Below, in pieces: positions 256 through 25,309 of a stretch of 32,000 bases of DNA. Position numbers and translations under genes: made by a program. The DNA is from Candidatus Brocadia sp. (lineage in GTDB: Bacteria; Planctomycetota; Brocadiia; Brocadiales; Brocadiaceae): positions 3,990,001 to 4,022,000 of the forward strand of contig CP091279.1 in assembly GCA_021650915.1 (NCBI GenBank). The letters are read 5' to 3'. The notes under the pieces are model-generated. The model did not search any database and had not been told where the DNA came from. It saw nothing but the letters and a program-made list of their open reading frames with translations. Position 1 is the first letter of the stretch; each line of letters starts with the position of its first letter.

Positions 256-1416
256 ATGAGATTGAAAAGAGACGTCCATCCGGTTTTTCTTCCTGCGGTA
301 ATGCTTATCATTCTTATGCTCATGGGATCAGGCTGTGCCATGTTTAAGAAAAAAACACTTTTAGTTCCGCGAGAAGCAGGGGATACCCTCGTGGAGATTA
401 CCGACCCCACACAACTTCCTCAGTTTAGAGACGATTACAGCCGTGATTCCCTCTTGCAATCGATCGATCATAGCCTTGACTACTTTAAGAGAGTGAAGGC
501 GAATCCGTATGGTTTTCATATGGATGGTTTTTCACACGAAAATCTGGAAGATTCCCTAAAGTTCTTTCGGGAAGGTTTTTTACGCTGCAGAGACACTGCG
601 GAGATCAACGATTTCATCGTAAAAAACTTCAGGGTCTTTCAGGCCATAGGAAAGGCTTACGAGGGACAGGTGCATTTCACCGGTTATGGAACGCCCATCT
701 ACGATGGAAGCCTCACCCCAACCGGAGAATTTCGCTATCCCCTTTATAAAATCCCGCCAGACTTCAGGAAACCTTATTATACCCGGAGTGAGATCGAGGA
801 CCGCAATCTCTTAAAAGGACTTGAAATTGCCTATCTCAAATCCAAACTGGACGCCTACCTCATTCACGTTCAGGGATCGGGGCAAATACGGCTTGCGTCG
901 GGTGAAAAGGTCTATGTGGGGTACGGCGCTGATTCAGGCCACAAATATAGCAGTATTGGGCGTATGCTCGTTATGGACGGGAAGATTCCCGAAGAGGAAT
1001 TGACCCTTTCGACGCTCATTGCCTATTTTAACCAGCACCCGGGTGAACTCGATTCTTACCTCAGGAAAAACGACCGCTATATCTTTTTCAAGCGGGTCAA
1101 CTATGCAACCCCCTACGGCTCTATCGGCGTGCCGGTAACTCCTATGAGGAGTATCGCCACCGACAAAAAGGTCTTCCCGGCTGGTGGTTTGGCCTTTGCA
1201 GTTATCGAACCAAAGAAGGCAAAGAAGACCTGGAAGTTTTGGGAAAAAGGGACGAGCGGGACAGAAAAATCGTTCTTTGTTCTCGATCAGGATACGGGAA
1301 GCGCCATTCAGACCCCGGCCAGGGCAGATGTCTATTTCGGAATCGGAGACCAGGCAATGTATGAGGCCGGGAGCTTAAATACCTACGGACGACTCTATTA
1401 TTTCCTGAAACGGTAG
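256..1416 (+). CDS. mltA: Membrane-bound lytic murein transglycosylase A (MltA domain plus C-terminal 3D domain), exported or lipoprotein-like
   Basis: The ORF track gives 196..1416. I prefer the internal ATG at 256 (MRLKRDV...), which is followed by a hydrophobic signal ending in LMGSGC. MltA-type motifs are LIHVQGSGQIRL and GYGADSGHKYSSIGRML. The 3D-domain end is LDQDTGSAIQTPARADVYFGIGDQA. Confidence 0.8.
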   Translation: MRLKRDVHPVFLPAVMLIILMLMGSGCAMFKKKTLLVPREAGDTLVEITDPTQLPQFRDDYSRDSLLQSIDHSLDYFKRVKANPYGFHMDGFSHENLEDSLKFFREGFLRCRDTAEINDFIVKNFRVFQAIGKAYEGQVHFTGYGTPIYDGSLTPTGEFRYPLYKIPPDFRKPYYTRSEIEDRNLLKGLEIAYLKSKLDAYLIHVQGSGQIRLASGEKVYVGYGADSGHKYSSIGRMLVMDGKIPEEELTLSTLIAYFNQHPGELDSYLRKNDRYIFFKRVNYATPYGSIGVPVTPMRSIATDKKVFPAGGLAFAVIEPKKAKKTWKFWEKGTSGTEKSFFVLDQDTGSAIQTPARADVYFGIGDQAMYEAGSLNTYGRLYYFLKR

Positions 1417-1481
1417 TTCGCCATGGCTCACTTTAACCGATTTCAGGAAAGGAGATCAGGGCAAAATATTACAATTTTCTC

Positions 1482-1510
1482 TTGACATTGGCCCGTATTA
1501 GATATATCTT
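1482..1510 (+). promoter_or_regulatory. Possible sigma70-type promoter (TTGACA at 1482-1487, AT-rich -10 candidates TATATC/TATCTT about 15-17 nt downstream)
   Basis: There is an exact TTGACA hexamer, but the -10 element is ambiguous. It lies about 25-45 nt upstream of the structured leader described next. Confidence 0.3.
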
Positions 1511-1527
1511 CATATACTCAATAATTT

Positions 1528-1672
1528 CGACAAAGGTAAACTCTGAGTGATCAGGGGGCGCAAAGTAAAGGGTCTTTCTCCACAGTTGAGATAGAGTGCA
1601 TCTCTTATAAAATAAAAAGATAGCCTTACTGCCGAAGCATTGTAATATTTAGCAGTAAGGCTATCTTTTTAG
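1528..1672 (+). promoter_or_regulatory. Candidate c-di-GMP-I (GEMM-I) riboswitch aptamer with overlapping intrinsic terminator, in the leader of the first OmcB-like gene
   Basis: On the + strand the order is ACAAAGGUAAAC (1531-1541), stem CUCUGA/UCAGGG capped by the GNRA loop GUGA (1541-1556), GG-CGCAAAG (1557-1565), then GAUAGCCUUACUGCCGAAG (1619-1637). This follows my recollection of the GEMM-I pattern AAAGGCAAAC-stem-GNRA-stem-GGACGCAAAGC ... AGC.GGG.UGCCGAA. GGUAA (1535-1539) can pair with UUACU (1626-1630). The 3' conserved block lies inside the 5' arm of the terminator hairpin. I could not fold the second (receptor) helix convincingly by eye. Confidence 0.4.
1614..1670. terminator. Perfect 19-bp hairpin (AAAAAGATAGCCTTACTGC / GCAGTAAGGCTATCTTTTT) flanked by an A-run and a T-run; intrinsic terminator
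   Basis: The arms 1614-1632 and 1652-1670 are exact reverse complements, and the 3' arm ends in TTTTT. It could terminate mltA, act as the riboswitch expression platform, or both. Confidence 0.7.
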
Positions 1673-1837
1673 TAATAACCGTAAAGGGATTGTTTGTCTT
1701 TAGCATGATTTTATTAAATACTCATACATAAAAGGGAGTATATAAGCCGCCTAAACGGCAAAGGAGTTGGCTCATGTTACAGGAAGCAAGAGGGCTCCTT
1801 TTAAAGATCATGTGTCTTTTTTAGAAAGGAGGAGTAA

Positions 1838-3469
1838 ATGAGGTTAAGGAATAGTATGTACAAATTGTTGTGTATTTCTGGCTTGATGTCGTTTGCACTT
1901 TACGGGTGCGGAATGTTCAAATATGAAGCTGGTGTCGAGCATGATAAGCCACCGTACTATCATGGACACGTTGAAGATGAACCACCGGCAAGGCACCTTC
2001 GGTCGCATGTACATGAAGCACCAGCTCCTGCACCAGCGCCAGCGCCTCAATCGGATGTCTGCACGGCAGATGGGGCATACCCGACGAATAGCAAGGATTG
2101 CTGCAGTGTTATTTATCTGCAAAAAATGGGCCCCTGCAGCGGTAGCGTGGGTCAGGAATATTGCTACGTAATAAAAGCCACGAACCTTACCAAAAGAAAG
2201 GTGAAAAACGTAGAAGTTATTCAGACCCTTCCCAAGAATTTTGAGGTGAGAAATTCCACCCCTGAATTGGGCACCGGAAGCGCGGGCGGTGTGGCGAAAT
2301 GGTTCTTGGGTGAGCTTGGCCCTGAAGAAACGAGAGAAATTAAGGTTTGCGGTATTCCGACACAAAGCGGAAACATGCCTTTCTGCACGGATGTTACGTA
2401 TAGTTTACCAGAGGTTTGCCTTGACCCGGTCATTACCGAGCCGAGGATAACCATCGCAAAGAGCGCTCCAGCCGAGGTTACCCTTTGTGATGTGATTCCG
2501 ATCACCTTTACCGTCACCAATACCGGCACGGGCGTAGCGAACAATATTAAAGTTAAGGAGACCTTGCCCGCAGGACTGGAGACGCAGGATGGCAGAACTG
2601 ATGTGGTCTTAGATGTTGGTTCATTAAATCCAGGCGAGTCGAGAGACGTTGCGTTGACGGCAAAAGCAACAAAAACCGGCACATTTAATAATACTGCGAC
2701 GGCGGTTGCCGATGGCGGTTTGAGTGCAGAATCCAATACAACCACGACTGCAGTAAGACAACCAGTGCTTGCTATCACAAAAGTAGGCAGCAGCGATAAA
2801 GTGTATCTGGGACGCAATATTTCATATGAAATTGTGGTAACCAACAATGGCGACTGCCCGGCGACATCAACCGTTGTTGAAGATAGCGTACCTGATAATG
2901 CCTCCGTGGTAAACGCCAGCGAAGGAGCAACCTTATTGGGTAGCACAGTTACCTGGAATGCAGGAACCATACAGCCGCAGGGATCACAGAAATTTACTCT
3001 GACGTTGAACCCCAAAGGCATTGGTACCGTGAAAAACACGGTGGCAGCGCGGGCTACCTGCGCAGAAGCCGTTTCAGCAGCAACTTCAACCGAAGTCGTA
3101 GGTATTGCTGCAATCCTGCTTGAGGTAATCGATATCGATGATCCTATTGAGGTTGGAAACGATGAAGTCTACGAAATCGTTGTAACCAACCAGGGTTCAG
3201 AAACGGGGACCAATATCAAAGTAACCTGCATACTTGAGGATGAAATGCAGTATGTAACTTCTGAAGGACCAACAACGGGAAGTGTTTCTGCTGACGGCAT
3301 GACGGTAACCTTCGACCCATTGCCAACCCTTGCTTCAAAGGCAAAAGCGATTTGGAAGGTCAAGGTGAAGGCGATGAAAGAGGGTGATGTCCGATTCAAG
3401 GTTATTATGACCGAGGATTGCCTGGGCAGACCAGTAGAAGAGACCGAAGCTACACATTTCTATGATTAA
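1838..3469 (+). CDS. Lipoprotein with four tandem DUF11 (conserved repeat domain) modules; OmcB-like (chlamydial 60-kDa cysteine-rich OMP-like)
   Basis: A strong RBS (AAAGGAGGAG) sits 5 nt before the ATG. The signal peptide ends in a lipobox-like ALYGC. A His/Pro-rich region with a (PA)5 linker follows. Repeated VTNxG..xxNxxV...LP modules are present. The C-terminal block DPIEVGNDEVYEIVVTNQGSETGTNIKV...GPT.G...VTFDPLPTLASKA...GDVRFKV...PVEETEATHFYD matches my memory of the OmcB C-terminus ([26 protein letters not shown]...GPTKG...VVFDSLPRLGSKE...GDARGEA...PVSDTENTHIY). Confidence 0.8.
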   Translation: MRLRNSMYKLLCISGLMSFALYGCGMFKYEAGVEHDKPPYYHGHVEDEPPARHLRSHVHEAPAPAPAPAPQSDVCTADGAYPTNSKDCCSVIYLQKMGPCSGSVGQEYCYVIKATNLTKRKVKNVEVIQTLPKNFEVRNSTPELGTGSAGGVAKWFLGELGPEETREIKVCGIPTQSGNMPFCTDVTYSLPEVCLDPVITEPRITIAKSAPAEVTLCDVIPITFTVTNTGTGVANNIKVKETLPAGLETQDGRTDVVLDVGSLNPGESRDVALTAKATKTGTFNNTATAVADGGLSAESNTTTTAVRQPVLAITKVGSSDKVYLGRNISYEIVVTNNGDCPATSTVVEDSVPDNASVVNASEGATLLGSTVTWNAGTIQPQGSQKFTLTLNPKGIGTVKNTVAARATCAEAVSAATSTEVVGIAAILLEVIDIDDPIEVGNDEVYEIVVTNQGSETGTNIKVTCILEDEMQYVTSEGPTTGSVSADGMTVTFDPLPTLASKAKAIWKVKVKAMKEGDVRFKVIMTEDCLGRPVEETEATHFYD

Positions 3470-3576
3470 GCTTCTCTTTTACTTCAGTGTCTGACACAAG
3501 CAGTCGGAGATGAAGTGATGTGAAGGAGACAGGAAGTTTTAGAATCTCCTTGAAGTGTAGTTGATTTTAGTATACA

Positions 3577-5682: not shown

Positions 5683-6486
5683 GTGTTTTTGGAGAATGTA
5701 TTAAATAAGGAAATAAAAAAGATCATTGACGACTGTCCTGAAGTAGGCCGTATTCTTGAGGAATATGGCATTGGCTGTGTCCCCTGTTCCGTGGGCAGCT
5801 GCCTTTTGAAGGATGTTGTGGGAATCCACAATCTTGATCCGGAACGGGAAGCCACCTTGATGTACCGGATAGAAAAGGCTATTTATCCTGATAGAAATGT
5901 TTCAAAGCCGGTGATAGATGCATCAAAAAAATCTGCGCCGAAGAAGATCACGTATTCACCACCGGTCAAAAAGCTGGTTGATGAGCATGTTCTGATCAAA
6001 CGGCTCCTGGCTTTAGTCCCTACCATTGTTGATTACATTGAAAGCAGCATGAAGGTGGATAAGGATCTGGTTTTAAAATGCGTTGATTTTATTCGGACCT
6101 ATGCAGACAAATATCATCACATGAAGGAAGAGGATATTTTGTTTAAGTATGTAGACGATAAGGCAGAGGTTATTCAGGTCATGTATAAGGACCATGACAC
6201 AGGAAGGGGTTACATCAGACAGGTTGTTGAGGGCGCTGAAACGGGGAATAAGGCGCAAATTAAGCAAAATCTGCTTGCCTATCGGGAATTGCTCACCCAG
6301 CATATTAAAAAAGAGGATGAAATTCTTTACCCGTGGATTGATCGCCAGCTATCAACAACTCAGGTCGGCGAGATGTTTCGCAAGTGTAATGAAGCGGACG
6401 CTTCGGTAGGCGAAGAGCTACCAAAAAAGTATGAGCGGTTTATTACTGATTTAGAAGGAAAATTTTTACAGGAGGTTGTGAAATGA
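5683..6486 (+). CDS. DUF1858 (redox-disulfide, hybrid-cluster-protein-associated type) plus hemerythrin-like HHE di-iron domain protein; RIC/YtfE-like architecture
   Basis: The N-terminus (IIDDCPEVGRILEEYGIGCVPCSVGSCLLKDV) is of the DUF1858 type. The C-terminal half has hemerythrin-like ligand spacing (DEHVLIKRLL, YADKYHHMKEEDILF, LLTQHIKKEDEILYPWI). The start is uncertain: GTG at 5683, or TTG at 5689, which is better spaced from AAGGAGG. Confidence 0.65.
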   Translation: MFLENVLNKEIKKIIDDCPEVGRILEEYGIGCVPCSVGSCLLKDVVGIHNLDPEREATLMYRIEKAIYPDRNVSKPVIDASKKSAPKKITYSPPVKKLVDEHVLIKRLLALVPTIVDYIESSMKVDKDLVLKCVDFIRTYADKYHHMKEEDILFKYVDDKAEVIQVMYKDHDTGRGYIRQVVEGAETGNKAQIKQNLLAYRELLTQHIKKEDEILYPWIDRQLSTTQVGEMFRKCNEADASVGEELPKKYERFITDLEGKFLQEVVK

Positions 6487-6965: not shown

Positions 6966-7010
6966 AGAAAAAAATCCCTGGGGGGTTTTAAACTCCCCAG
7001 GGATTTTTTA
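6966..7010. terminator. Bidirectional intrinsic terminator between convergent operons
   Basis: The structure is AAAAAAA-ATCCCTGGGG-loop-CCCCAGGGAT-TTTTT. The GC-rich 10-bp stem has an A-run on one side and a T-run on the other. Confidence 0.8.
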
Positions 7011-7053: not shown

Positions 7054-7602
7054 TTACATTCCTCTGAACAGATATCGTTGCGCCCGTGAGCTTTCTCCGC
7101 GTTGTATGTCTACTATCATTTCTGTGCCCGTGTCCTGGAATTGATACACGAGTTTCCCACCCCGTTCATCTGAGTGAGCAGAAAACAAGACCCTGCCGGA
7201 AACCGGGTTACCATCCAGGCTGGCTGCAACAATCTTTAAAGGCAGACAACACGCCGCCTGAAAGACCAGGGTATTGTCAAATGCCAGAAGATGTGAGTAG
7301 TGCGGTTTTCTGACACCTTTTTGTCTTACGGTGTTATCTGCCTTTCGCGAAAGAAGGACATGCGTATTATCAGGACGCATCTCAACCATATATTTTTCGC
7401 AGGCATCGATCATATTCTCCAAAGAAAGATTAATCCATAATCCCGCAAGCCTCAGCATTGTTTTTGCATCCTCCAAATCCTGTATAATACTATCAGGTGA
7501 AGCAACCGATCTTGTCCTCTCTCTGGAACTGAATGCCCTTGGAGCATGAAGGTCAACAAGCGGTAGCATTTCATAGTCTCTGTGCATCGTACTGATTGGC
7601 AT
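7054..7602 (-). CDS. Hypothetical protein (182 aa), downstream partner of the 837-aa orphan
   Basis: Its ATG overlaps the TGA of the upstream gene (TGATG on the minus strand at 7604-7600). It has no signal peptide, TM segment or motif that I recognise. Confidence 0.5.
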   Translation of the reverse strand: MPISTMHRDYEMLPLVDLHAPRAFSSRERTRSVASPDSIIQDLEDAKTMLRLAGLWINLSLENMIDACEKYMVEMRPDNTHVLLSRKADNTVRQKGVRKPHYSHLLAFDNTLVFQAACCLPLKIVAASLDGNPVSGRVLFSAHSDERGGKLVYQFQDTGTEMIVDIQRGESSRAQRYLFRGM

Positions 7603-10115
7603 CAGGTATTATTTCCATATTCTTTGATAATCGCCAGTTTATCAATTTCTTTCATGAGATCATCCATTTCCTCTTTTTGCGGTTCCTTAAAACCTTCTCC
7701 CACCTGGTAATGGAATATGGTGCTGACACTTTCCTTAAACATATCTTCCATTGATTGCGTCAAGGCAATCAATCGCACATCGATGTTACTTAGCAAATAC
7801 GTTATTTGGTCAAAAAGGACGCTGGTTGTCACACCGGAATGGATAAACGAATGACGATCTAAATTACTTTCGATATCATGCATGAACCCTTCAATCTGAG
7901 CAATCTGGTTTTGCAAAAGGAGAGTCGCCTTTTCCAGATTCTTTTTCAACAACTGGGAGCTCTTCAAATAGTCAATATGGACGTCAGGCTCCTTGGATAT
8001 TTTTTTATCTTTATTCCTGGTACATAACGAAATTCGATGGTCAATGTCTTTCACTGCCTTGATCAACTGGTTGAGCCGATTCTCCATAGCTTCAAATTCA
8101 GATACATTTTGATAATAACACGTATCTTTTAATTCTTCATGGAATCTCTCGATCTCCGTTAAAAATGCGTCCAATTCTTTTGCGCTATAAGAAAAAAAAT
8201 CAAAATCATTTTTAAAAGTATTAACCCTGCGGGTCAGAGTTTCTGTTTCTATAATATTTTTCAGACCTGCTTTAATATCAACAAACTTTTTAAAAACAGA
8301 ATTTTGATGCAACTTTTGCATAAAAACGCCCCTGTTGCTGTTTTGTTCCTTCGCAGGAATGTCTCTGCTGGTAACAAAATCCTCAAGGGACTGTACCGTA
8401 TTGATGATCTTTCCGTAGGCAACTTCCTTCAATGGTTTGTCAAAGAGAAGACCTTGTAACTCTTTTAATAACCCGTGAGCGGTTTCCTGATCCTGAGTAT
8501 TTTTCAATATTCCCATGGCGTTCAACTCATTTTGTAGCATTTCAAATTTATTGGATCTGGCAAAAATGGTCTTCAGAGGATCCTGGATGTCCTTTTGTCT
8601 CTCCATATCCTTTATTAGCCCTTTCAACTCATCAAGGGTATGGGACAAACTGGTAAATAGCGGCACGGATTTTTTTGCCTCTAAAAAGGCATCTTTCCCG
8701 GACACCGTCTTCAGTTTTGATAACTTTTCCAAATTCGCACTAAACTTTCCGATAAGCTGCTGAATGTCTTCTTGTTCTGGTTTTAAGACCTGATCCTGGC
8801 GGAAAACGGGCTTTGTGGAAATATTGATCGTTACGGAGAATACCGCCTCAATGCATTTTTTCAGTAAGGAGCCAAATTTCTTTGAGGATTTTTGAGCAAG
8901 CTGAATCACATCCTGCGTTCCCGACGCGGCCGCGCCTGTGTCCTTTATCGTTAAAAAATCGAGATATGCAAGAAGTTTCCCGAAAGAATTCAGCAATTCC
9001 TGGTAATCATTTTGGAGCATCTGATGCTTTGAAATGGTTTGCAATTTCTTCAATTCATGATAATTTGCCGTTAAATTTTCCTGTTCACTCCGAATGTCAG
9101 GTTTGTTTTTCATGAATTTTTTTGTTAATCGCGCAACAAACTTTTCAATACAATTCGCGTAGGTTAAGAAGAGACCGCATTCCTCCAGAAGCTTAAACTG
9201 GCCATTCAGCCTGCCGGACGCAGAATAGATATAACCTGCGTATGCGGGAATACCCTTCCAGTTATTATTTTCAATGATACGCTCAAGCCGCATTAAATCT
9301 GAAAATAATTCTTTATTAAATAACAGCGGATTATCCGTTGATGCGATGTGATTAAAAATATCAGCGAAGAAACCAAGGTCATCAATTTTTTCCTCAACGA
9401 TTTTCATCTCGCTCTCCTGAAGATGAAAGATTCTTAGCTTCAGATAATGCTGCTCTAAATCTAATTTGAGGATCAAAGAGATAAAATGGAGATTGACATA
9501 AATTTCCTTCAATCCCGTTGTCGTAAAGACCTTATTTTTCGTTTCAATTTTATTGAACCGAAGCTCCCTGCCTAATTTTTCCGAAGTTAATGGCAATCCG
9601 TTGAGAATTAAGTAGTCGCCGAACCGTCCTGTATACTTTTCATACGATTCCGCGTGGGTAATATAGTTGCGATGGATGTAATCCGGTGCACAAGCATCCG
9701 CCTGACCCTGTTCTGTTTCGTCAATGATCAGGAGATTGCTCGCGCCCTTTTCAATTCCTTTTTTGTAATGCAGTACGACATGAGGCTTCATCAGACATTG
9801 AATGAGGGACTCAATCTCAGATGGAGTAGCGGTAATGGCCGCTTCCACAAGACCTTTTTCTTTCACGGTAAGGATAGTATCAATTTTGCCGTTATGAAAC
9901 AACCGCCTGGAAATAATTTTCAGGGTCTTTTCAAAAGAAGTATCGATAACCTGCCCTTGAAACGTAACACGGAAGGCCTTCATCGGTTCCTTTGCCGACT
10001 TTCCCCTGGTCCTCGTTTTTACTTCGTCTATCTGTGCCCGCACAATCTCAGAGGTGTGATACTTCTTTTTTAAGAGCTCATACAAATAATTAGATGCTTG
10101 AGTTTTCATATGCAC
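7602..10115 (-). CDS. Large hypothetical protein (837 aa): N-terminal mixed-composition region of about 250 aa followed by a long K/E/L/I/N-rich, probably helical or coiled-coil region
   Basis: The reading frame is uninterrupted for 2.5 kb. It starts at GTG 10115 or ATG 10109. I found no Walker A, nuclease, protease, TM or signal motifs by eye. The DNA is visibly more AT-rich than the neighbouring genes. Confidence 0.6.
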   Translation of the reverse strand: MHMKTQASNYLYELLKKKYHTSEIVRAQIDEVKTRTRGKSAKEPMKAFRVTFQGQVIDTSFEKTLKIISRRLFHNGKIDTILTVKEKGLVEAAITATPSEIESLIQCLMKPHVVLHYKKGIEKGASNLLIIDETEQGQADACAPDYIHRNYITHAESYEKYTGRFGDYLILNGLPLTSEKLGRELRFNKIETKNKVFTTTGLKEIYVNLHFISLILKLDLEQHYLKLRIFHLQESEMKIVEEKIDDLGFFADIFNHIASTDNPLLFNKELFSDLMRLERIIENNNWKGIPAYAGYIYSASGRLNGQFKLLEECGLFLTYANCIEKFVARLTKKFMKNKPDIRSEQENLTANYHELKKLQTISKHQMLQNDYQELLNSFGKLLAYLDFLTIKDTGAAASGTQDVIQLAQKSSKKFGSLLKKCIEAVFSVTINISTKPVFRQDQVLKPEQEDIQQLIGKFSANLEKLSKLKTVSGKDAFLEAKKSVPLFTSLSHTLDELKGLIKDMERQKDIQDPLKTIFARSNKFEMLQNELNAMGILKNTQDQETAHGLLKELQGLLFDKPLKEVAYGKIINTVQSLEDFVTSRDIPAKEQNSNRGVFMQKLHQNSVFKKFVDIKAGLKNIIETETLTRRVNTFKNDFDFFSYSAKELDAFLTEIERFHEELKDTCYYQNVSEFEAMENRLNQLIKAVKDIDHRISLCTRNKDKKISKEPDVHIDYLKSSQLLKKNLEKATLLLQNQIAQIEGFMHDIESNLDRHSFIHSGVTTSVLFDQITYLLSNIDVRLIALTQSMEDMFKESVSTIFHYQVGEGFKEPQKEEMDDLMKEIDKLAIIKEYGNNT

Positions 10116-10225
10116 AATGTAATAAAACTTTCTGGGACTGTCAAAATAATTCTTATTATCATCAAAGATTATCGAATTTCTATTTGTTTGCCGGATGCAA
10201 GCAACTTTTTATGCAAGGCGAAAGA

Positions 10226-10375
10226 GTAACACTTTAGTTTTTTGAAAAAGTAGGGGCGAAGCATTTGCCTGCTTGGGGTGTGAATACCTTTATGCCAATT
10301 TATGGCAAATGCTTCGCCCCTACACCATGCGGCAACATCGTATTATGGTAATTTTTCAAAAAACTAAAGTGTTAC
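10226..10375. mobile_element. MITE-like non-autonomous element, copy A (150 bp)
   Basis: It has perfect 24-bp terminal inverted repeats (GTAACACTTTAGTTTTTTGAAAAA ... TTTTTCAAAAAACTAAAGTGTTAC). A second internal inverted pair is GTAGGGGCGAAGCATTTGCC / GGCAAATGCTTCGCCCCTAC. It is flanked by a perfect 8-bp direct duplication, GCGAAAGA (10218-10225 and 10376-10383). It has no coding capacity. Confidence 0.85.
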
Positions 10376-10913
10376 GCGAAAGATAATCTTTTCAGTGGAG
10401 TCTTCCACCGCCGTTCCTGACTTTGGCCTTGCAGCCTTCCACCACCTCTCTCTGCCTTAAAATCAACAACATCCATTGTTTTCCCCGTCACGACCAGATT
10501 CTCATCTTTTTCAATGTTCTTAGCCGGGGTTCTCCTGTGAAAAATACGTAATGGTGGTCTCCGCAATCATGCCCGTTTGCCTTTCAACTTGTGACCATTG
10601 ACAAAGCGCGTGTAAGGGACTATTTACATGAAACAATTATACCCTTCAGAAGTAAATGCGCAACTATGTTTTTTGTTCAACATGACGACATCAGATTTTC
10701 TTCTCAACAATAGTATCACTTTATTATAATTTTTTATTTGAAGAATAGTTATGATATTATTATAGTATTATCGTAAATGTGTTTTATCCTTTGGGAAGCA
10801 TGAAAATTACGACCTTGTTTTTCCGTTTAGCGTCTCACATTGCACCTTTGAAACGACCATTTGCGCGCATCTTCGAAATTCCCGTATAAAATTTTTAACA
10901 TGTAAAATCAAGC

Positions 10914-12992
10914 ATGTTAAGTATTTTCATTACAAAGAACTCTTTTCCTCTTTCTGACGCACTTGGGAAATTTCGGCTGACCCTTATCACCCTTTTCATT
11001 CCTTTCTGTTTCTTGCCTTGCCTGTGTCTGGCAGAAGCAGAACAGGAACACATTCTGGAATCAACACCCATAAGCGACGAGGTGATTCTTTTCCAGGAAA
11101 TCCCCTCAGTTTATAGCGCCTCAAAATATGAGCAGAAGGTAACCGAAGCGCCTTCTTCCGTGAGTATTATAACGGCGGATGAAATCAAGAAATATGGGTA
11201 TCGAAATTTTTCGGAAATTTTACGGAGCATACGGGGTTTCCATATCACCTATGATAGAAACTATCATTACGTGGGGGTAAGAGGGTTTGGATTGTCCGGA
11301 GATTACAATACCCGCATCCTCCTCCTTATCGATGGGCATAGAATAAATGACGCTATTTATGACCAGGCGCCTATCGGTACGGATTTCCCTCTTGATATCG
11401 ATCTTATCGAGCGCATTGAGATTATCCGCGGCCCGGGGTCTTCCCTGTATGGCACCAATGCATTTTTTGGCGTTGTCAACGTAATTACCAGGAAGGGCAG
11501 AGGGTTCAGAGGAGCAGAGGCTTCGGCAGAAGCGGGTACTTTTGAGACATACAAGACGCGTATGAGCTACGGTGAAAAATTTTCCAACGGTCTTGAAATG
11601 GTAATTTCCGGCTCTTATTATGAGAGTGAAGGAGATGACCGGCTTTTTTTCCAGGAATTCGATCAACCGGCAAACAACCATGGCATTGCGGAAGATCGGG
11701 ATCGTGATCAGTTTGAAAATATTTTCGCCGAGATTCTGTATCGTGATTTTACCTTACAGCTAAATTACCATGACAGGGAAAAGGACGTTCCAACCGCCCC
11801 CTTTGGCACGCTCTTTAATGAGCAGTTTTTTACTGCTGATGAGCGGGGCTGGGCTGACCTAAAGTACGAACGGATATTTGGCGACCAATTCAGTTTTCTA
11901 TCCAGAGTCAGCTATAATTTTTATGATTATAACGATGATTATTTTACCAGTCCACCGACTGGAAAATTAAAAACTTCTGATGTCATTGACAGTCAATGGT
12001 TACAAGGGGAGGTTCAGATAACCAAAACATTTTTTGAAAGGCATAAATGCACCTTTGGTATAGATTCCCGATATAATATGCAGCAGGACCAGCGCACCTT
12101 TAATCATATACAGGAGGGAACAGTTCCCGGTATCAAGCGGGAAATCCTCGATGACAAACGTGAATCAGAGTATTTTGCAGGTTATCTTCAGGATGAATTT
12201 ACTCTTACCGACTTTTTGACCTTGCAGGCAGGCGTTCGGTTTGATTATTTTGAAACCTTTGGGGGAACTGCTAACCCGCGTGCTGCCCTGATTTATACCC
12301 CCTTCGAGAAAACGGCGTTTAAGTTCGTCTATGGCCGGGCATTTCGCGAACCAAATGCCTATGAACTCTATTACAGCGACGACACCTCCCAGAAGTCCAG
12401 TCCCGATCTTGACCCCGAGACGATTGATACCTATGAGATCATTTACGAGCAGTATTTTGCAAAATACTTCCGTGGAACCATTGTTGGTTTTTACAACTCA
12501 ATTGACGATTTCATTTCCTTAACAACGGATCCTCATGACGGCCTTCTCGTGTTTGACAATGTTGACGGAGTTCATGCAAGAGGTTTTGAATTTGAACTGG
12601 AAGGAAAATCTGAGCTTGGATTTGAGGGGCGTGCAAGTTATAGCATCCAGGAAGCTGAAGGCGGTGATTCCGGGGGTATCCTGGTGAATTCTCCCAAACA
12701 CCTGGCCAAGTTCAATATGATTATCCCCATGTTCAAGAGAAAACTTTTTTTAAGCGGTGAAGAACAGTATACCGGCAAGAGGAGAACAATCATGGGCAGC
12801 TCTGCAGGAGACTATTTCATTACGAATGTAACGCTTTATAGTCGTAATATTTTTAAAACACTGGAAGTTTCAGGAGGCGTTTTTAACTTGTTCGACATGG
12901 AATATGAGGACCCGGGCGGAGAAGAACACGCCCAGGATGTTATTGAACAGGATGGCAGGGTATTTCGAATCAAGATTACGTACGCATTTTAA
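10914..12992 (+). CDS. TonB-dependent outer-membrane receptor (plug plus 22-strand barrel type)
   Basis: It has a signal peptide. Plug motifs are APSSVSIITADEIKKYGYRNFSEILRSIRGF, RILLLIDGHRIND and IEIIRGPGSSLYGTNAF. The barrel ends with RIKITYAF, a terminal aromatic residue. Confidence 0.85.
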   Translation: MLSIFITKNSFPLSDALGKFRLTLITLFIPFCFLPCLCLAEAEQEHILESTPISDEVILFQEIPSVYSASKYEQKVTEAPSSVSIITADEIKKYGYRNFSEILRSIRGFHITYDRNYHYVGVRGFGLSGDYNTRILLLIDGHRINDAIYDQAPIGTDFPLDIDLIERIEIIRGPGSSLYGTNAFFGVVNVITRKGRGFRGAEASAEAGTFETYKTRMSYGEKFSNGLEMVISGSYYESEGDDRLFFQEFDQPANNHGIAEDRDRDQFENIFAEILYRDFTLQLNYHDREKDVPTAPFGTLFNEQFFTADERGWADLKYERIFGDQFSFLSRVSYNFYDYNDDYFTSPPTGKLKTSDVIDSQWLQGEVQITKTFFERHKCTFGIDSRYNMQQDQRTFNHIQEGTVPGIKREILDDKRESEYFAGYLQDEFTLTDFLTLQAGVRFDYFETFGGTANPRAALIYTPFEKTAFKFVYGRAFREPNAYELYYSDDTSQKSSPDLDPETIDTYEIIYEQYFAKYFRGTIVGFYNSIDDFISLTTDPHDGLLVFDNVDGVHARGFEFELEGKSELGFEGRASYSIQEAEGGDSGGILVNSPKHLAKFNMIIPMFKRKLFLSGEEQYTGKRRTIMGSSAGDYFITNVTLYSRNIFKTLEVSGGVFNLFDMEYEDPGGEEHAQDVIEQDGRVFRIKITYAF

Positions 12993-13027
12993 TTTATTAG
13001 GCGATACGTACCGTGCCTGGAGAAAAG

Positions 13028-13963
13028 ATGCCTATCATTCTCAATGCCTTCATTATAGCATTCATTATCGTATATATCAATATTCCCGAAATCTTAGCTG
13101 ATGAATACCAAATCGCAGTGCTTGCCAGTCGCAACGAATCCCCTTATAAGGAGGTAATTGCGGGTTTTCAGAAAACAATCATAGACCAGAGAAGAGATAC
13201 AAAGTGCAATGTCTTTATCATGGAAAACGATAAAACGCAAATATCACAAAGCTTTCGTGACATCAAAAAAATCAAACCCAGGGTACTCTTTACGGTTGGA
13301 ACTGCTCCCACGGTAGAAGCTCTCAAAGTATTTACTGATATACCCGTTGTTGCAACCCTTGTGCTTGATGATGATATGATACTGCACGCACGTAATGCTA
13401 CCGGGGTAATACTCAGTTTTCCCATAGAAACACAGTTCCATTTGCTCAAAAACTTTCTCCCGGAGGCAAAAAAGATTGGTGTTATTTACAACCCTGCGGA
13501 AAACCGGGAAAAAATCCGATCCGCCACAATCATAGCAGAAAAAATGGGGCTCGATCTTCATCCTGTGGATGTCCATTCGCCCAAAGATATTCCCAAGGCA
13601 CTCAAGACCTTGGCAAGTGGTATTGACATCTTGTGGGGAATAAATGATGCCCTGGTATTTAACTCGCTAACGGCAAAACAAATCTTGCTATTTTCCTTTA
13701 GAAATCATGTGCCATTCAGCGGTCTTTCTTCCACTTGGGTAAAGGCAGGCGCTCTGTATGCGCTGGAATATGATTTTCATGATATCGGCGTGCAGTGTGG
13801 CGAAAAATCCCTTAAGATCCTGCAGGGGGCAAAAGTAAACTCTCTGCCCGTATGTTTACCCCGAAAATTGCTTTATGCTTTGAATCTGAGAACGGCCAGA
13901 TACATGAAGATAAAATTTCGCGAAGAGCACATTCATAATGCATATCAGATTTTTGATGAATGA
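13028..13963 (+). CDS. Periplasmic ABC_sub_bind-family (PF04392-like) solute-binding protein, without adjacent permease or ATPase genes
   Basis: The pattern YQIAVLAS...PYKEVIAGF...VGTAPT...IPVV...ATGV...IGVIYNPAENREK...ND is typical of the family. The track start is GTG 13013; ATG 13028 has a better-placed GGAGAAAAG RBS. Confidence 0.7.
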   Translation: MPIILNAFIIAFIIVYINIPEILADEYQIAVLASRNESPYKEVIAGFQKTIIDQRRDTKCNVFIMENDKTQISQSFRDIKKIKPRVLFTVGTAPTVEALKVFTDIPVVATLVLDDDMILHARNATGVILSFPIETQFHLLKNFLPEAKKIGVIYNPAENREKIRSATIIAEKMGLDLHPVDVHSPKDIPKALKTLASGIDILWGINDALVFNSLTAKQILLFSFRNHVPFSGLSSTWVKAGALYALEYDFHDIGVQCGEKSLKILQGAKVNSLPVCLPRKLLYALNLRTARYMKIKFREEHIHNAYQIFDE

Positions 13964-15666
13964 TTATGGCAAGGACAAAAGAGACGACGGGAAAGAGACG
14001 ATTAAGCATTGCGGCGAAGTTTAATCTTCTAACCATTTTTATTATTCTGGTAACTGCGGCAGGAATAAGCTATTTCCTCATACAAAATGCTACTTCTCAT
14101 ATATATCGCAACCTGGTAAATCATGGCTTAATTATTGCCGGCATGGCGTCGCAAACCAGTGAATACTGTATCTACACCGGGGACAAAGAATCTATGAAGC
14201 TGATTATTGAAAGTCTGGAAGTGGATGAAGACATTGCCTATGTATGCCTTCTTGATAAAGAAAAAAGGCAACTTATGTTCAAAATCTTTATCCCTGGATT
14301 GGTAATTCCACCGCTTCCTCAAGGGGAGATGACAGACGACGGCTTCACCTTCACAACACACTACGAAGAATTTATAAATAGAGAAGATGGGAACCGATAC
14401 CTCGGCTTCTTTTCTCCCGTAATTGGCTATATCAATAACAAACCAAGCGATGAATTCTCAACCCACAAAGAAAGTGCGAACCAGGAGATTATTGGATATG
14501 TTCACCTTGGGTTATCGCTTCAAAACCTTCACAAAAGGATAAAGCAATTTCAGATATCTACGCTGGCCTTTACCTCGCTCTTCATATTTCTTGGCGTTAT
14601 CTTAACCCTGTTTCTTACAAAAAGAATTACTCTTCCCATCAAGAAATTAAGCTTAATAACAAAAAAAGTATCAATGGGTGTATTCGAACACACGGTTTCT
14701 GTTCGCACAAACGATGAAATTTCCGATCTTGCAGCCACCTTTAACCATATGGTCGACCGACTGCGAGCGTATCGCGAGGCGATAGAGTCACACAATCAGG
14801 AACTCTTAAATACCAATGAACACCTGTTACAGGAGATCACGATCCGTAAACAGATAGAGAGGGCGCTTGAAGAAAAGACTCGGGAGATTATCCGTTCGAA
14901 TAAGGATTTGGAGCAATTCGCCTATATCGTTTCCCATGATTTACAGGAACCCCTGCGAAAGGTAATGGTGTTTGGTGATCGGTTGAGTACGAAATATGGA
15001 CATGCCTTATCCCATGAAGGGCGTGATTATATCGATCGTATGAAAAATGCGTCACAGCGGATGCAAACCCTCATAACCGATCTTCTTGCTTACTCAAGAG
15101 TCACCACCCATACCAGACCATTCACCCGGGTTGATCTTGCCAGGCTCATTCAGGAGGTAATCAGCGATCTGGAAATCCGGTTAGAAAGAACGGGAGGACG
15201 GGTAATCCTTGGGAATTTACCGACTGTTCATGCTGATGCTGTTCAAATGCGACAGTTATTTCAAAATCTCATCGGGAACGCCCTGAAATACCATCGTGAT
15301 GGGGTGCCGCCGGTGATTGAGATTCAGACACACTACCCCAAGGGCATGAAGGAAGACCACACACAGACCTCTCACCGTAATGACTTGTGCGAAATTACGG
15401 TTGCAGATAACGGAATTGGGTTTGAAGAGAAGTATGCCGAGTACATCTTTGGAATTTTCCAGAGATTACACCGGCGCGATGAATACGAAGGAACTGGTGT
15501 AGGGCTGTCGCTTTGCCGAAAAATTGTAGAGCGTCACGGCGGAAGGATCACCGCAACAAGCGCTCCCGGGAAGGGTGCGAAATTTACTATTGTATTACCG
15601 GTAGCGCCAGCACAAGAAAAAAGCCATGGAAGGCACAAAGAAATTATTTCCCATCTTAATAGCTGA
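13960..15666 (+). CDS. Sensor histidine kinase (TM - periplasmic sensor domain of about 165 aa - TM - HAMP - HisKA - HATPase)
   Basis: Its start overlaps the upstream stop (ATGA). The H-box is FAYIVSHDLQEPLRKV, the N-box LIGNALKYH, G1 DNGIGF and G2 GTGVGLSLC. Confidence 0.85.
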   Translation: MIMARTKETTGKRRLSIAAKFNLLTIFIILVTAAGISYFLIQNATSHIYRNLVNHGLIIAGMASQTSEYCIYTGDKESMKLIIESLEVDEDIAYVCLLDKEKRQLMFKIFIPGLVIPPLPQGEMTDDGFTFTTHYEEFINREDGNRYLGFFSPVIGYINNKPSDEFSTHKESANQEIIGYVHLGLSLQNLHKRIKQFQISTLAFTSLFIFLGVILTLFLTKRITLPIKKLSLITKKVSMGVFEHTVSVRTNDEISDLAATFNHMVDRLRAYREAIESHNQELLNTNEHLLQEITIRKQIERALEEKTREIIRSNKDLEQFAYIVSHDLQEPLRKVMVFGDRLSTKYGHALSHEGRDYIDRMKNASQRMQTLITDLLAYSRVTTHTRPFTRVDLARLIQEVISDLEIRLERTGGRVILGNLPTVHADAVQMRQLFQNLIGNALKYHRDGVPPVIEIQTHYPKGMKEDHTQTSHRNDLCEITVADNGIGFEEKYAEYIFGIFQRLHRRDEYEGTGVGLSLCRKIVERHGGRITATSAPGKGAKFTIVLPVAPAQEKSHGRHKEIISHLNS

Positions 15667-16072
15667 AGACGATCCGGATGACCGTCTCATCATACACGAC
15701 GCCTTTGAAGAAGCCGGCATGCATCATGCGGTTCATTACGTCGAGGATGGTCAGGAGTTAATGGATTATCTTTGCTTGCGGGGAAAATACTCCTGGCCAA
15801 ACCATTCACCGCGCCCGGGTATTATTCTCCTTGATCTGAATATGCCCAAAAAAAACGGACAAGATGCGCTAAGCGAAATCAAATCAGACCCGAGCCTGAA
15901 GCGAATCCCTGTTATTGTCATGACAACATCAAAAAGAGACGAGGATATCGGATTTCTGTATGATTTGGGCGCAAATTCATACATCCATAAACCAACGGAT
16001 TTTGCAACATTAGTAACAATTGTAAAGACGTTATCAAGATATTGGTTCGAAATTGTTGAACTCCCATCATAA
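15626..16072 (+). CDS. Single-domain CheY-like response regulator (Rcp1-like)
   Basis: Motifs are ILIAEDDPDDRLI, LLDLNMPKKNG (phospho-acceptor Asp) and SYIHKP. Its start lies 41 nt inside the end of the kinase gene, in another frame. Confidence 0.8.
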   Translation: MEGTKKLFPILIAEDDPDDRLIIHDAFEEAGMHHAVHYVEDGQELMDYLCLRGKYSWPNHSPRPGIILLDLNMPKKNGQDALSEIKSDPSLKRIPVIVMTTSKRDEDIGFLYDLGANSYIHKPTDFATLVTIVKTLSRYWFEIVELPS

Positions 16073-16086
16073 GGAGTAGAAATGCG

Positions 16087-18210
16087 ATGAACAATACCCG
16101 AATACGAATACTTCTCGTGGACGACGACGAAGATGATTATGTAATAGCCCGTGAATTGTTTTCTGAAATCTCGACCTGGAAACCTGAACTGGATTGGGTA
16201 AAAACGTATGACGCAGCAATGGAAATGATCCGGACAAGACAGCATGATGTGTATCTCTTTGATTATCGGCTTGGTCTCGGCGAACACACCGGACTGGAAC
16301 TCTTGCGTGAAACGATAACCACGGGTTGCAAGGCTCCCATAATCATCCTCACCGGTCAGGGAGATTACCGTGTGGATATGGAGGCAATACGAAAAGGTGC
16401 ATCGGATTACCTGATTAAGGGGCAGATAAACTCTTCACTGTTGGAGAAATCGATCCGCCATGCCATTGAACGCAAGCGTGCGGAAGAAGCAATCAGATCA
16501 GCAAAAAATTATTCGGAATACCTTGTTGCATGCTCGCTCGATATGATTGTTGCCGCCAACTTAGGCTTAGAAATCACCGAATTCAACCCCTCCGCCGAAA
16601 AGATGTTTGGCTATTGCAAGTCAGAAGTACTTGGCAAATCAATCCGCATGCTGTTTGCAGACGCCATGGAATCCAAACAGGTTACTGAAAAAATATTAAA
16701 AGAAAAGATTTTTTCAGGAGAAATAAATAAAAGAAAAAAAAGCGGGGAGATTTTCCCCTCCTTCTTATCTGCATCCATCCTGAAGGATATCAATGATAAA
16801 GAAATAGGAATCGTAGGTATTTTGCGCGATATAACAGAACGCAATCGTCTTATCGATCAACTCCGGTACAATGCATTTCACGATCCGTTAACAAACTTGC
16901 CCAACAGGAATCTGTTCATGGAACGATTGGAGCGCTTACTTGAACACGCAAAAAGAAACAGAAACAGTGCGTTTTCCGTCCTCTTTCTCGATCTCGACCG
17001 TTTCAAGGTGGTAAACGATAGCCTCGGTCACCTCTCGGGAGATAAATTGCTGATCTTAATTGCACAAAAATTGAGAGAATGCCTGCGAAGATCGGATACC
17101 GTTGCTCGTTTTGGAGGAGATGAGTTTGCAATCCTTCTTGATAATGTCGATGACCACTTCAATGCAAAATTTGTGGCAGAGAGAATCCTGGAAACCTTGA
17201 AGGATCCTTTCGTCCTCGACGGACACAAAATTGTTGTTTCTGCCAGCATTGGAATTGTTATAAAAGGCGAATTGTATAATCGTCCGGAGGATATTCTGAG
17301 AGACGCCGACACGGTGATGTATCGGGCAAAGATGCTTGGCAAGGCACGGTATGCAATATTTAATATTGAAATGCATGCCCATGCAATGAACTTTTTACAG
17401 TTAGAGACGGACCTCCGGCATGCTATTGAACGCTCGGAACTCGTCATTTATTATCAGCCCATTGTGTCATTGGCAACCTCGGAAATTGTTGCCGTCGAAT
17501 CTCTCGTTCGCTGGCAACATCCACAACGTGGCTTAATTTTACCGGATGAGTTCATTCCCCTGGCAGAGGAAACCCGGGAGATCGATAAGGTTGGCTATTG
17601 GGTTATCCAAGAGGCATGCGCCCAAAATAAGGCATGGCATGATATGGGATTTTCAAACATAACCGTCACCGTGAATATATCGTTGTTACAATTCCAGCGT
17701 AAGGAATTGCCGGAACAGATCGGAACAATCATTAAAAACACTGGCTTATCTGCCGACGCCTTTGAATTGGAAATCACGGAAAGCACGGTAATGGAGAGCA
17801 AGGGACTCGTTCTCGAAATTTTTAAAGAACTGAATAAGATGAAAATCCATCTCATGATGGATGATTTTGGTATCGGTTTTTCTTCAATCAACAGTTTGAA
17901 GCATCTTCCTTTCAGCACGTTAAAAATTGACCGGTCTTTAATTTCGGACATTGACACCAATCCGGACGCCTCGGCAATTGTCAAATCCATTATAGACATG
18001 GCGCACACGCTGAAAATAAAAGTGATTGCAGAGGGAGTGGAGACACCAGGCCAACTGGAGCTGTTGCGGTCGTATAACTGTGATTATGCACAGGGGTACT
18101 TGTTCTACTGTCCCATGAAAGCAGAAGAGATTACCAGCCTGCTGAGACAGTCAAAGAAATATCCGTCAGAAAAGAAAAGTAACATTACGCGTGAATTCAG
18201 TCCTTCGTAA
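16087..18210 (+). CDS. REC-PAS-GGDEF-EAL c-di-GMP turnover protein
   Basis: The REC domain shows ILLVDDDEDDY and DVYLFDYRLG. A PAS domain follows (..RDITERN). The GGDEF motif RFGGDEFAIL is intact. The EAL domain has ESLVRW in place of EALVRW, plus ELEITES, DDFGIGFSS, EGVET and QGYLF. Confidence 0.85.
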   Translation: MNNTRIRILLVDDDEDDYVIARELFSEISTWKPELDWVKTYDAAMEMIRTRQHDVYLFDYRLGLGEHTGLELLRETITTGCKAPIIILTGQGDYRVDMEAIRKGASDYLIKGQINSSLLEKSIRHAIERKRAEEAIRSAKNYSEYLVACSLDMIVAANLGLEITEFNPSAEKMFGYCKSEVLGKSIRMLFADAMESKQVTEKILKEKIFSGEINKRKKSGEIFPSFLSASILKDINDKEIGIVGILRDITERNRLIDQLRYNAFHDPLTNLPNRNLFMERLERLLEHAKRNRNSAFSVLFLDLDRFKVVNDSLGHLSGDKLLILIAQKLRECLRRSDTVARFGGDEFAILLDNVDDHFNAKFVAERILETLKDPFVLDGHKIVVSASIGIVIKGELYNRPEDILRDADTVMYRAKMLGKARYAIFNIEMHAHAMNFLQLETDLRHAIERSELVIYYQPIVSLATSEIVAVESLVRWQHPQRGLILPDEFIPLAEETREIDKVGYWVIQEACAQNKAWHDMGFSNITVTVNISLLQFQRKELPEQIGTIIKNTGLSADAFELEITESTVMESKGLVLEIFKELNKMKIHLMMDDFGIGFSSINSLKHLPFSTLKIDRSLISDIDTNPDASAIVKSIIDMAHTLKIKVIAEGVETPGQLELLRSYNCDYAQGYLFYCPMKAEEITSLLRQSKKYPSEKKSNITREFSPS

Positions 18211-24859: not shown

Positions 24860-25309
24860 GATAGAATTTTCCAGAAAGGCCGAGAAATATTACTGTTCTG
24901 CAGATGAAAAGACGGTGAGAATTCTCAACAGATGTCTTGAAATTATTGCTAAAGAACCTTTTTATCATGCAAACATAAAAAACTGCATGGAGAGTTTGAA
25001 GGAAGCTATAGATACAGGTCGGGAAGTTTAGAAATTGTATAACACTTTAGTTTTTTGAAAAATTACTATAATAACGATGTTGCCGCACGGTGTAAGGGCG
25101 AAGCATTTGCCATAAATTGGTATAAATGTATTCATACCCCAAGCTGGCAAATGCTTCGCCCCTACTTTTTCAAAAAACTAAAGTGTTACGGAATTGTATA
25201 TTCTGTGGATGAAGAAGAAAGAATTGTTTATAGTGAAATAATTACGAACAAAAGGTTAAAGAAGTTGGGAATAAGTGACTGCTTTAAAATAATGATGCGC
25301 ATAGTATAG
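24852..25309 (+). pseudogene. RelE/ParE-family toxin gene inactivated by a frameshift and by MITE insertion
   Basis: Frame A reads TFEIEFSRKAEKYYCSADEKTVRILNRCLEIIAKEPFYHANIK. After the A6 run (24977-24982) the sense continues in another frame as KLHGEFEGSYRYRSGSLEIV. The MITE then interrupts. After it, the same frame resumes as (I)VYSVDEEERIVYSEIITNKR.... I found no canonical start codon. Confidence 0.7.
25039..25189. mobile_element. MITE-like element, copy B (151 bp), inverted relative to copy A
   Basis: It has the same 24-bp TIRs and internal GGGCGAAGCATTTGCC/GGCAAATGCTTCGCCCC pair. By eye it shows about nine substitutions and one 1-nt indel against the reverse complement of copy A. It is flanked by GAAATTGT / GGAATTGT (7 of 8 positions match). 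Confidence 0.85.

Follow-up and report, generated by a model that had tools for sequence, protein, structure and literature searches.

The described proteins that come closest to those considered here are small domains with a ferredoxin-like fold. Acylphosphatases are stand-alone proteins of about 90–100 residues in which an arginine and an asparagine are essential, and ACT domains are typically small-ligand-binding regulatory modules. A degenerate relative of such domains is predicted at the head of a large protein of anaerobic ammonium-oxidizing (anammox) bacteria, organisms that remove a large share of the fixed nitrogen from the oceans and from wastewater and that possess a unique organelle, unique lipids and a unique biochemistry. 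To our knowledge, the non-catabolic proteins that build an anammox cell are almost entirely uncharacterised. The protein and its smaller neighbour are encoded by two minus-strand genes, referred to below as the large gene and the small gene, in a 32,000-nucleotide stretch of Candidatus (Ca.) Brocadia DNA (the window; GenBank assembly GCA_021650915.1, contig CP091279.1, positions 3,990,001 to 4,022,000). The window organism is identifiable as Ca. Brocadia fulgida; a protein of this species shows 100% identity to the large protein, the 90% cluster of which includes BROFUL_02814. It can be stated with high confidence that the two genes form a lineage-specific core pair of the anammox bacteria (order Brocadiales) and that they encode soluble proteins of undescribed families. 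Lineage-specific conserved hypothetical proteins are common in anammox genomes, that of Ca. B. pituitae containing 1,418 conserved hypotheticals (PMC7814187).

A first reading of the window, made from its letters alone and referred to here as the original prediction, had described the pair as an orphan operon in an accessory-island-like context. Neither term suits the distribution observed. Homologues of the large protein form 84 clusters at 47–100% identity and those of the small protein 61 clusters with the same taxonomic range, all of them from anammox-type sources. The large-protein homologues are full-length save for a few contig-truncated entries and none is named for a non-anammox lineage, the single odd label, Candidatus Nomurabacteria, belonging to a contig-end fragment (611 amino acids on a 3 kb contig). 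Identity to the window protein is 67–85% in other Brocadia species, 66% in Jettenia, 61% in Loosdrechtia, 52–57% in Kuenenia and 47–50% in Scalindua. When one genome per GTDB species was scanned, 49 large-gene loci were recovered from these five genera and from unnamed Planctomycetota or Brocadiaceae bins, with one locus per genome if contig-end fragments are set aside, so that the gene is apparently single-copy. The exception to this taxonomic range (L049, positions 1054-3531) lies in a bin labelled Thermodesulfobacteriota and encodes a Scalindua-type orthologue at 47% identity; in its upstream region it hardly differs from the Scalindua loci L046 and L051, and mis-binning of a Scalindua contig is the probable cause. 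The Scalindua orthologues (e.g. P0153 and P0156; loci L046-L054) carry an extra Lys/Ala/Thr-rich N-terminal tail, MKAKAKTKTKVKT..., that is absent in Brocadiaceae. A filter-free search with a profile hidden Markov model of the family against 1.84 billion representatives at 50% identity retrieved one full-length cluster, its fragments and two distant stand-alone proteins of about 200 residues. No full-length relative from outside the anammox lineage was retrieved in this search, and no viral contig encoding a relative of the large protein was found. Because the identity ranking from Brocadia to Scalindua, the conserved flanks and the base composition all agree, the locus is, on comparative evidence, chromosomal and vertically inherited; it is present in all known anammox genera and essentially nowhere else. 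The small reading frame proved to be conserved and the pair to co-occur, two points on which the original prediction had staked its case.

Both open reading frames (ORFs), present in the six-frame ORF list as well as in the sequence, can be considered genuine genes. The ratio of non-synonymous to synonymous substitution rates (dN/dS), estimated by the Nei-Gojobori method for the window genes against five other Brocadia species, is 0.11–0.14 for the large gene and 0.18–0.28 for the small one, values that indicate purifying selection on both. Upstream of the large gene, an invariant sequence common to seven Brocadia species, ATTATTTTGACAG-N-GAAAGTTTTATTACATT, holds the promoter elements TTGACA-17 nt-TACATT (Table 1). 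The form TTGACAG-N-GAAAGTTTTATTA[CA]ATT is kept in Brocadia, Jettenia and their relatives (loci L012-L031) at a constant distance of 6 nt between the end of its -10 element and the ATG, Jettenia and related lineages reading TA[CA]ATT, then 6 nt, then ATG. In Scalindua, TTGAAC-17 nt-TATAAT or TATAGT is found about 10 nt before the ATG, and the large gene of Kuenenia retains a promoter-like sequence of its own. Because the invariant promoter ends 6 nt ahead of the ATG at 10109, this codon, which is also the start in the GenBank entries, is almost certainly used rather than the GTG at 10115 with which the mechanically called ORF opens. The large-gene messenger RNA is probably leaderless or nearly so, since the conserved promoter abuts the start codon. 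At the other end of the pair, the strong bidirectional terminator that had been noted from the letters was recovered as a stable hairpin about 45 nt downstream of the small gene.

The argument for an accessory island had been drawn from base composition and from a nearby miniature inverted-repeat transposable element (MITE), and it was accompanied by the suggestion that the pair could be a two-component defence or toxin system with a small partner. The large gene is indeed more AT-rich than its neighbours: its guanine-plus-cytosine (GC) content is 0.393 against 0.462 ± 0.030 for the mean of the 19 other long ORFs of the window (z = -2.3). The deficit is located at the first and second codon positions (GC1 0.451 vs 0.522; GC2 0.280 vs 0.365) and is explained by an amino-acid composition rich in K, E, I, L and F, GC at third positions (GC3) being just one standard deviation low (0.449 vs 0.498 ± 0.048). 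The orthologues of Kuenenia, Jettenia, Loosdrechtia, Scalindua and another Brocadia species lie likewise 4–8 GC points under their own flanks and track the GC content of the host. Horizontal transfer as the cause of the low GC content is rejected on account of the near-normal GC3 and of this offset common to every genus, and the AT-richness loses its value as a sign of foreign origin.

The MITE-like element was also found where it had been announced, about 110 bp upstream of the large gene, as a 150-bp nested palindrome. Its 27-nt terminal inverted repeats are 96% identical and its 20-nt inner arms 100% identical. A second copy lies at about 25071-25220 with its internal segment in the opposite orientation, and copies of the terminal repeat ACACTTTAGTTTTTTGAAAAA were seen in more than 109 metagenome contigs, in many cases paired in inverted orientation at a distance of 105–125 nt. 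The element is short and non-coding, has terminal inverted repeats and exists in many copies, so the label MITE appears reasonable. None of the other Brocadia species aligned has it at this position, so it is regarded as a local insertion. A horizontally acquired anti-phage defence or toxin system on a MITE-marked island, to which the AT-rich large gene, the MITE and the architecture of two genes without recognised function had pointed, can hardly be reconciled with these data. The genes are universal in the order and apparently single-copy, their divergence from Brocadia to Scalindua follows vertical descent, their synteny and promoter are conserved, and their neighbours in the window are housekeeping or signalling genes. 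The patchy, strain-variable distribution of a defence island was not seen, all anammox genera carrying the genes in syntenic flanks. In the PADLOC scan the sole match of the large protein was PDC-M13C at E 0.0035 over 25 residues and the small protein had none; matches to PHROG and BFVD were equally lacking. We give this explanation next to no chance and infer that the pair is neither a defence or toxin system nor a mobile element.

The coupling of the two genes by a TGATG stop/start overlap had been taken to argue for a functional pair. The overlap is real: around it the minus strand reads ...AATACC TGATG CCAATC..., and the stop and the start share one base. Among 42 species representatives with enough downstream sequence, the large gene is directly followed by the small gene on the same strand in 22, with a spacer estimated at about -10 to 636 nt (median about 60 nt); the 1-nt TGATG overlap is found only in this window, a few other species having an estimated overlap of about 10 nt. 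Adjacency and co-orientation are thus seen in many genomes, but a functional pair demonstrated by coupling is not supported, since the genes are unlinked in the 20 remaining species and the overlap is not conserved. It is possible that each gene functions on its own, the neighbourhood in Brocadiaceae being a historical accident and the overlap a local quirk of B. fulgida, and we hold this for a minority option that deserves serious attention. The unlinked species include all Scalinduaceae, and spacers reach several hundred nucleotides. In the assembly GCA_015075005.1 the large gene is on another contig and the small gene still has the neighbours that it has in the window (the AF_0155-like, the hemerythrin and the two DUF11/CLIPPER genes); in the same assembly and in a Scalindua-type bin (L064) the small gene is downstream of the same LysM-M23 peptidase, HIT and IspD genes. 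Against independence, order and strand are constant wherever the genes are adjacent, in lineages as distant as Brocadia and Kuenenia, both families show the same rare phyletic pattern, and several lineages have spacers of 5–60 nt or an overlap with no obvious terminator in between. As read from the genomes compared, the pair is best described as sharing a rare phyletic pattern and often one transcription unit, linkage being not obligatory and the stop/start overlap of B. fulgida being no trait of the family.

The large protein had been reported to lack any recognisable family, catalytic motif, signal peptide or transmembrane segment, and library scans and motif checks bore this out. No significant match was obtained in Pfam, NCBIfam, PADLOC, PHROG or PDB sequences, and neither a transmembrane segment, a signal peptide or hydrophobic N-terminus, nor a CxxCH, CxxC or Walker A (GxxxxGK[ST]) motif was found; the NLLIIDE sequence resembles a Walker B motif, the partner Walker A of which is missing from the protein. 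A confident match to a characterised family, which would have spoken against the original prediction, did not emerge. The AlphaFold2 model built from a 49-sequence alignment (mean predicted local distance difference test, pLDDT, 81.8; predicted template modelling score, pTM, 0.67) comprises an alpha/beta region at residues 1-198 followed by an all-helical body, so that the N-terminal non-helical part is shorter than the 250 residues first estimated. Searched with Foldseek against PDB and BFVD, the model gave no match at E <= 0.001, and sequence-profile searches of PDB with both families returned noise alone (IglA at E 0.017; RNA polymerase omega at E 0.26). Within the protein, the sequence is most strongly conserved at residues 151-300 and 751-800. 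The segment ELRFNKIETKNKVFTT is a candidate interaction site because it is nearly invariant and yet partly a predicted flexible loop.

The head unit of the model (strand 46-55, helix 58-72, strands 77-84 and 89-96, helix 98-109, strand 112-116, plus further strands) has the beta-alpha-beta-beta-alpha-beta(-beta) order of the acylphosphatases (PF00708; PDB 2W4D, 1V3Z, 2GV1) and of the N-terminal domain of HypF. The stretch beta1-alpha1-beta2-beta3-alpha2, with its G-x-V...F motif and its 'VEA' strand, can be aligned with acylphosphatases in register. PF00708 is matched by 4 of the 49 orthologues (best E 1.8e-4), below the Pfam gathering threshold, and by the window protein not at all at E <= 1. 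With a head-region profile to which the two distant homologues had been added, six PDB sequences were retrieved at E <= 10, of which five are acylphosphatases aligned in register (E 0.38-0.99), and hhalign compared the head with acylphosphatase fragments at 95.6% probability, the templates having been picked post hoc. The two stand-alone proteins, P0160 from a Candidatus Margulisbacteria bin (GCA_028715625.1; L006, 8001-8612) and P0161 from metagenomes, are homologous to residues ~23-160 (profile E 3e-12 and 1.6e-7; 31–34% identity) and have in common with them the motifs G-x-V...F...T, PH-x-V-L-H and P-x5-N. They are complete short genes of about 200 codons without the helical body, the second stand-alone homologue gene being at L007 5285-5917, and they possess an arginine (FRGT) where the anammox proteins have a glutamate (FEKT).

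In the anammox proteins the motif G54-x-V56-x3-S60-F61-E62 is invariant (G-x-V-x3-S-F-E-K-T), the position of the catalytic arginine in the VxGxVQGVxFR loop is thus occupied by an invariant Glu62, and the position of the catalytic asparagine (GWVxN) is variable. The head further differs from acylphosphatases in being fused to about 700 further residues. Comparison of the sequences suggests fold similarity and remote homology to acylphosphatases, and membership of the family is not claimed. Because the arginine is replaced and the asparagine is not kept, the head is regarded as a probable non-catalytic binding module. That it would instead be an active acylphosphatase-type hydrolase, making an enzyme of the large protein, is suggested by the name of some database entries and by the PF00708, PDB and hhalign similarities; given the two altered catalytic positions and the lack of a PF00708 match in the window protein itself, it is very unlikely. 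Foldseek placed ACT domains first for the head (aspartokinase beta subunit, PDB 3AB2 and 2DTJ), as the best local matches. The two share the ferredoxin-like fold, at a probability of about 0.6 with E >0.2, a template modelling score (TM-score) <0.3, a root-mean-square deviation of about 9 Å and no sequence signal, which makes of this resemblance a lead for a ligand-binding head and not a case for membership. The preference appears consistent with a generic ferredoxin-like regulatory fold.

A member-wise Pfam scan of the large-protein family gave matches to Com_YlbF (9 of the 49 members, best E 2.5e-4, residues 600-691) and weak ones to FliJ, HAUS4 and Spectrin (3 of the 49, E >= 0.078). They were treated as noise of helical composition because the family profile retrieved no YlbF or YmcA structure in PDB at E <= 1. 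The layout had originally been said to fit a scaffold, a cytoskeletal or a sensor-type protein; scaffold and sensor are compatible with the evidence, whereas the compact body without a long coiled coil counts against the cytoskeletal option. In its strongest form the latter would make the large protein a cytoskeletal or membrane-shaping component of the anammox cell plan, acting in anammoxosome shaping or cell division and polymerising via its helical region. Such a role could be imagined for a large, soluble, K/E/L-rich and mostly helical protein that is exclusive to a lineage with a unique organelle and of which a few members have weak spectrin- or coiled-coil-type Pfam matches. It is improbable in view of the AlphaFold2 body, in which some 25 helices of at most 49 residues are packed compactly, of Foldseek matches to SMC/MukB at a TM-score <0.1 and of the missing nucleotide-binding motif; nor were internal repeats detected when eight segments of the body were compared all against all by hhalign (every probability <7%). 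Altogether the large protein is predicted to be soluble, with a degenerate acylphosphatase-like head, an exposed invariant loop and a compact, non-repetitive helical body of about 640 residues.

In the model of the small protein, one helix (residues 36-52) precedes a disordered basic stretch (79-95) and a meander of 7–8 consecutive beta hairpin strands. His101 (7300-7302), Cys118-Cys119 (7246-7251), Gly148-Gly149 and an R/Q-rich C-terminus are invariant. No significant match was found in Pfam, NCBIfam, PADLOC, PHROG or PDB sequences, no transmembrane segment, CxxCH or Walker A motif was detected, and Foldseek gave no match in PDB (best E 0.04; NEAT, avidin and Ig-like domains at a TM-score <0.35). 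A PilZ domain (PF07238) was considered and rejected: none of 28 members matched it at E <= 10 and the basic stretch before strand 102-107 is no conserved RxxxR. The small protein is thus predicted to be a soluble meander beta protein with an invariant histidine and a vicinal cysteine pair. No described family or fold in the libraries searched accommodates it, nor the helical body of the large protein; both are undescribed, which is not the demonstration of a new mechanism.

In Kuenenia stuttgartiensis the large orthologue is UniProt Q1Q7P2 (WP_164995382.1, KsCSTR_40370, kusta0089) and the small one KsCSTR_40360 (kusta0090), the kusta numbers being assigned from the consecutive numbering of the neighbours. 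In databases the large orthologue is called 'small soluble cyt c' or 'acylphosphatase'. In the Kuenenia lineage alone (loci L001, L010, L040, L044 and L052), naxL and naxS, identified by matches of their products (kusta0087/0088) to chains A and B of PDB 6R6M at E 1e-59 to 1e-62, directly precede the large gene on its own strand, and the first name was probably carried over from them. The large protein itself cannot be labelled a c-type cytochrome, as it has no CxxCH, no CxxC and no hydrophobic N-terminus, and it bears no relation in sequence or fold to NaxLS. The adjacency is absent in Brocadia, Jettenia and Scalindua, so that a link to naxLS was dismissed as a general feature.

The large gene of Kuenenia is transcribed. 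In RNA sequencing (RNA-seq) of K. stuttgartiensis CSTR1, KsCSTR_40370 had 1545/491 reads in controls and 124/345 after high hydrazine, a log2 fold change of -2.88 with an adjusted P value of 1e-5 (PMC12053348 supplement 2). It falls along with naxL, naxS, hydrazine synthase, hydrazine dehydrogenase and KsCSTR_40350 (PMC12053348). This experiment gives no specific regulatory link because most catabolic genes fall in it. No published description of either protein was found, the sole trace being one row of the RNA-seq supplement, and the portions of two supplements that were covered hold no detection at the protein level. A role of the pair in nitric-oxide, iron or redox homeostasis has to be weighed at this point, in which the pair would work together with its neighbours (NaxLS in Kuenenia; hemerythrin and AF_0155 in Brocadia and Kuenenia) as a sensor or regulator, with the His/Cys-Cys protein as the redox-sensing subunit. 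It would account for the position of naxL and naxS in Kuenenia species, for the convergent hemerythrin and AF_0155 genes that are syntenic with the pair from Brocadia to Kuenenia, for the common fall of KsCSTR_40370, KsCSTR_40350 and naxLS under hydrazine stress and for the invariant residues of the small protein. We nevertheless give it little weight. The naxLS adjacency is confined to Kuenenia, where the large gene keeps its own promoter-like sequence; kusta0087/0088 are marked Y in the signal-peptide and organelle-targeting prediction tables of Medema et al., and the large protein has neither a hydrophobic N-terminus nor a transmembrane segment. In addition, the hemerythrin and AF_0155 genes are convergent and set off by the terminator, and the co-regulation under hydrazine is unspecific.

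Some observations on the surroundings of the pair can be added. The segment 1838-6944 of the window (cf. L062/L063), which encodes a pair of DUF11/CLIPPER surface-type proteins, one hemerythrin-domain protein and one AF_0155-like protein ('4Fe-4S ferredoxin' by its Kuenenia name), is syntenic with the small gene, even in a genome that has the large gene at another place. Its hemerythrin gene shares 4 nt (6483-6486) with the AF_0155-like gene. A hairpin TTGCTTGC-ATCCG-GCAAACAA at 10184-10204, situated between the MITE and the promoter, is terminator-like on the plus strand and is kept in four of six other aligned Brocadia species with 1–3 substitutions. A 64-residue minus-strand ORF (10372-10566) with a TTG start and an Arg/Pro-rich product abuts the MITE and is assumed to be spurious. 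Downstream of a TonB-dependent receptor gene (10914-12992), positions 13013-18210 are occupied by a signalling cluster of an ABC-type substrate-binding protein, a HAMP histidine kinase, a receiver protein and a receiver-PAS-GGDEF-EAL protein.

Table 1. Positions of the gene pair, its predicted protein regions and its flanking elements in the window
Feature	Position	Strand	Remarks
Large gene	7602..10109	minus	835 amino acids from ATG at 10109; mechanical ORF 7602..10115, 837 amino acids from GTG; stop codon 7602-7604
Small gene	7054..7602	minus	182 amino acids, ATG start
TGATG stop/start overlap of the large and small genes	7600..7604	minus	Read in the sequence
Sigma-70-type promoter, TTGACA-17 nt-TACATT	10116..10144	minus	-10 element ends 6 nt before ATG; invariant in seven Brocadia species
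Predicted acylphosphatase-like head (ferredoxin-like beta-alpha-beta-beta-alpha-beta), residues ~46-131	9723..9980	minus	AlphaFold2, PF00708, PDB profile, hhalign
Nearly invariant segment ELRFNKIETKNKVFTT, residues 184-199	9519..9566	minus	Alignment and AlphaFold2; pLDDT <50 at 187-192, partly flexible loop
Predicted all-alpha body, residues 199-837	7605..9521	minus	About 25 helices, longest 49 residues
Variable, predicted disordered linker in the helical body, residues 392-444	8784-8942	minus	AlphaFold2, poor conservation
Small protein, orthologue of kusta0090 / KsCSTR_40360	7054..7602	minus	Predicted helix, then beta meander; pLDDT 81.4, pTM 0.78
Bidirectional intrinsic terminator, common to the pair and the convergent AF_0155-like gene	~6968..7009	both	Hairpin with A-tract and T-tract; -29.5 kcal/mol, z = -4.4 vs shuffles
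MITE-like nested palindrome, 150 bp	10226..10375	.	111 bp upstream of the large ORF start; context, not part of the pair

The explanation that we favour, by a narrow measure, combines the anammox core pair with a large protein that would be a non-enzymatic binding or scaffold protein and a small protein that would be its facultative partner. The large protein would serve as an adaptor for a cytoplasmic process specific to anammox cells, its degenerate acylphosphatase/ACT-like head and its invariant loop binding a ligand or a partner and its compact helical body offering a platform. The small protein, possibly binding a metal, a redox group or another ligand, would share a transcription unit with the large one in Brocadia, Jettenia and Kuenenia and be encoded at another place in Scalindua. 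Taken by itself, the functional part of this explanation, in which head and loop form the binding site and the small protein is a facultative partner, is tentative and rather doubtful; the grounds for it are the logic of the domains, the solubility, the lack of catalytic motifs and the phyletic pattern. Several points may be set against it. The partner role of the small protein has to face the species in which the genes are unlinked, nine Brocadiaceae-type lineages in addition to the Scalinduaceae. The similarity of the head to acylphosphatases stays below the Pfam threshold, the hhalign templates were chosen after the weak matches had been seen, and Foldseek ranked ACT domains and not acylphosphatases. 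Kusta0089 and kusta0090 are not among the proteins of the part of the Kuenenia fractionation proteome that was covered, in which kusta0091 and kusta0092 are listed. A more far-reaching proposal, which we find unlikely though worth stating, is that the large protein, with or without its small His/Cys-Cys partner, belongs to a machinery found only in anammox bacteria, perhaps a cytoplasmic scaffold at the anammoxosome membrane or a regulator coupling the catabolic state (nitric oxide, hydrazine) to physiology, with folds that have no solved precedent and a conserved leaderless transcript.

The binding or scaffold reading aside, a 96-kDa protein has been retained under purifying selection in every known anammox genus, which makes of it a candidate for anammox-specific cell biology or regulation. 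Its only relatives elsewhere are two stand-alone head-domain proteins, and its small partner is likewise restricted to anammox bacteria, so the family could serve as a marker of the lineage. Two misleading names, 'small soluble cyt c' and 'acylphosphatase', can be corrected, and the promoter that abuts the ATG provides a testable case of leaderless expression in Planctomycetota. For the specialist, the locus would be useful rather than startling, as a source of a marker family, corrected annotations, a conserved and probably leaderless promoter and a candidate for the cell biology of the anammox bacteria.

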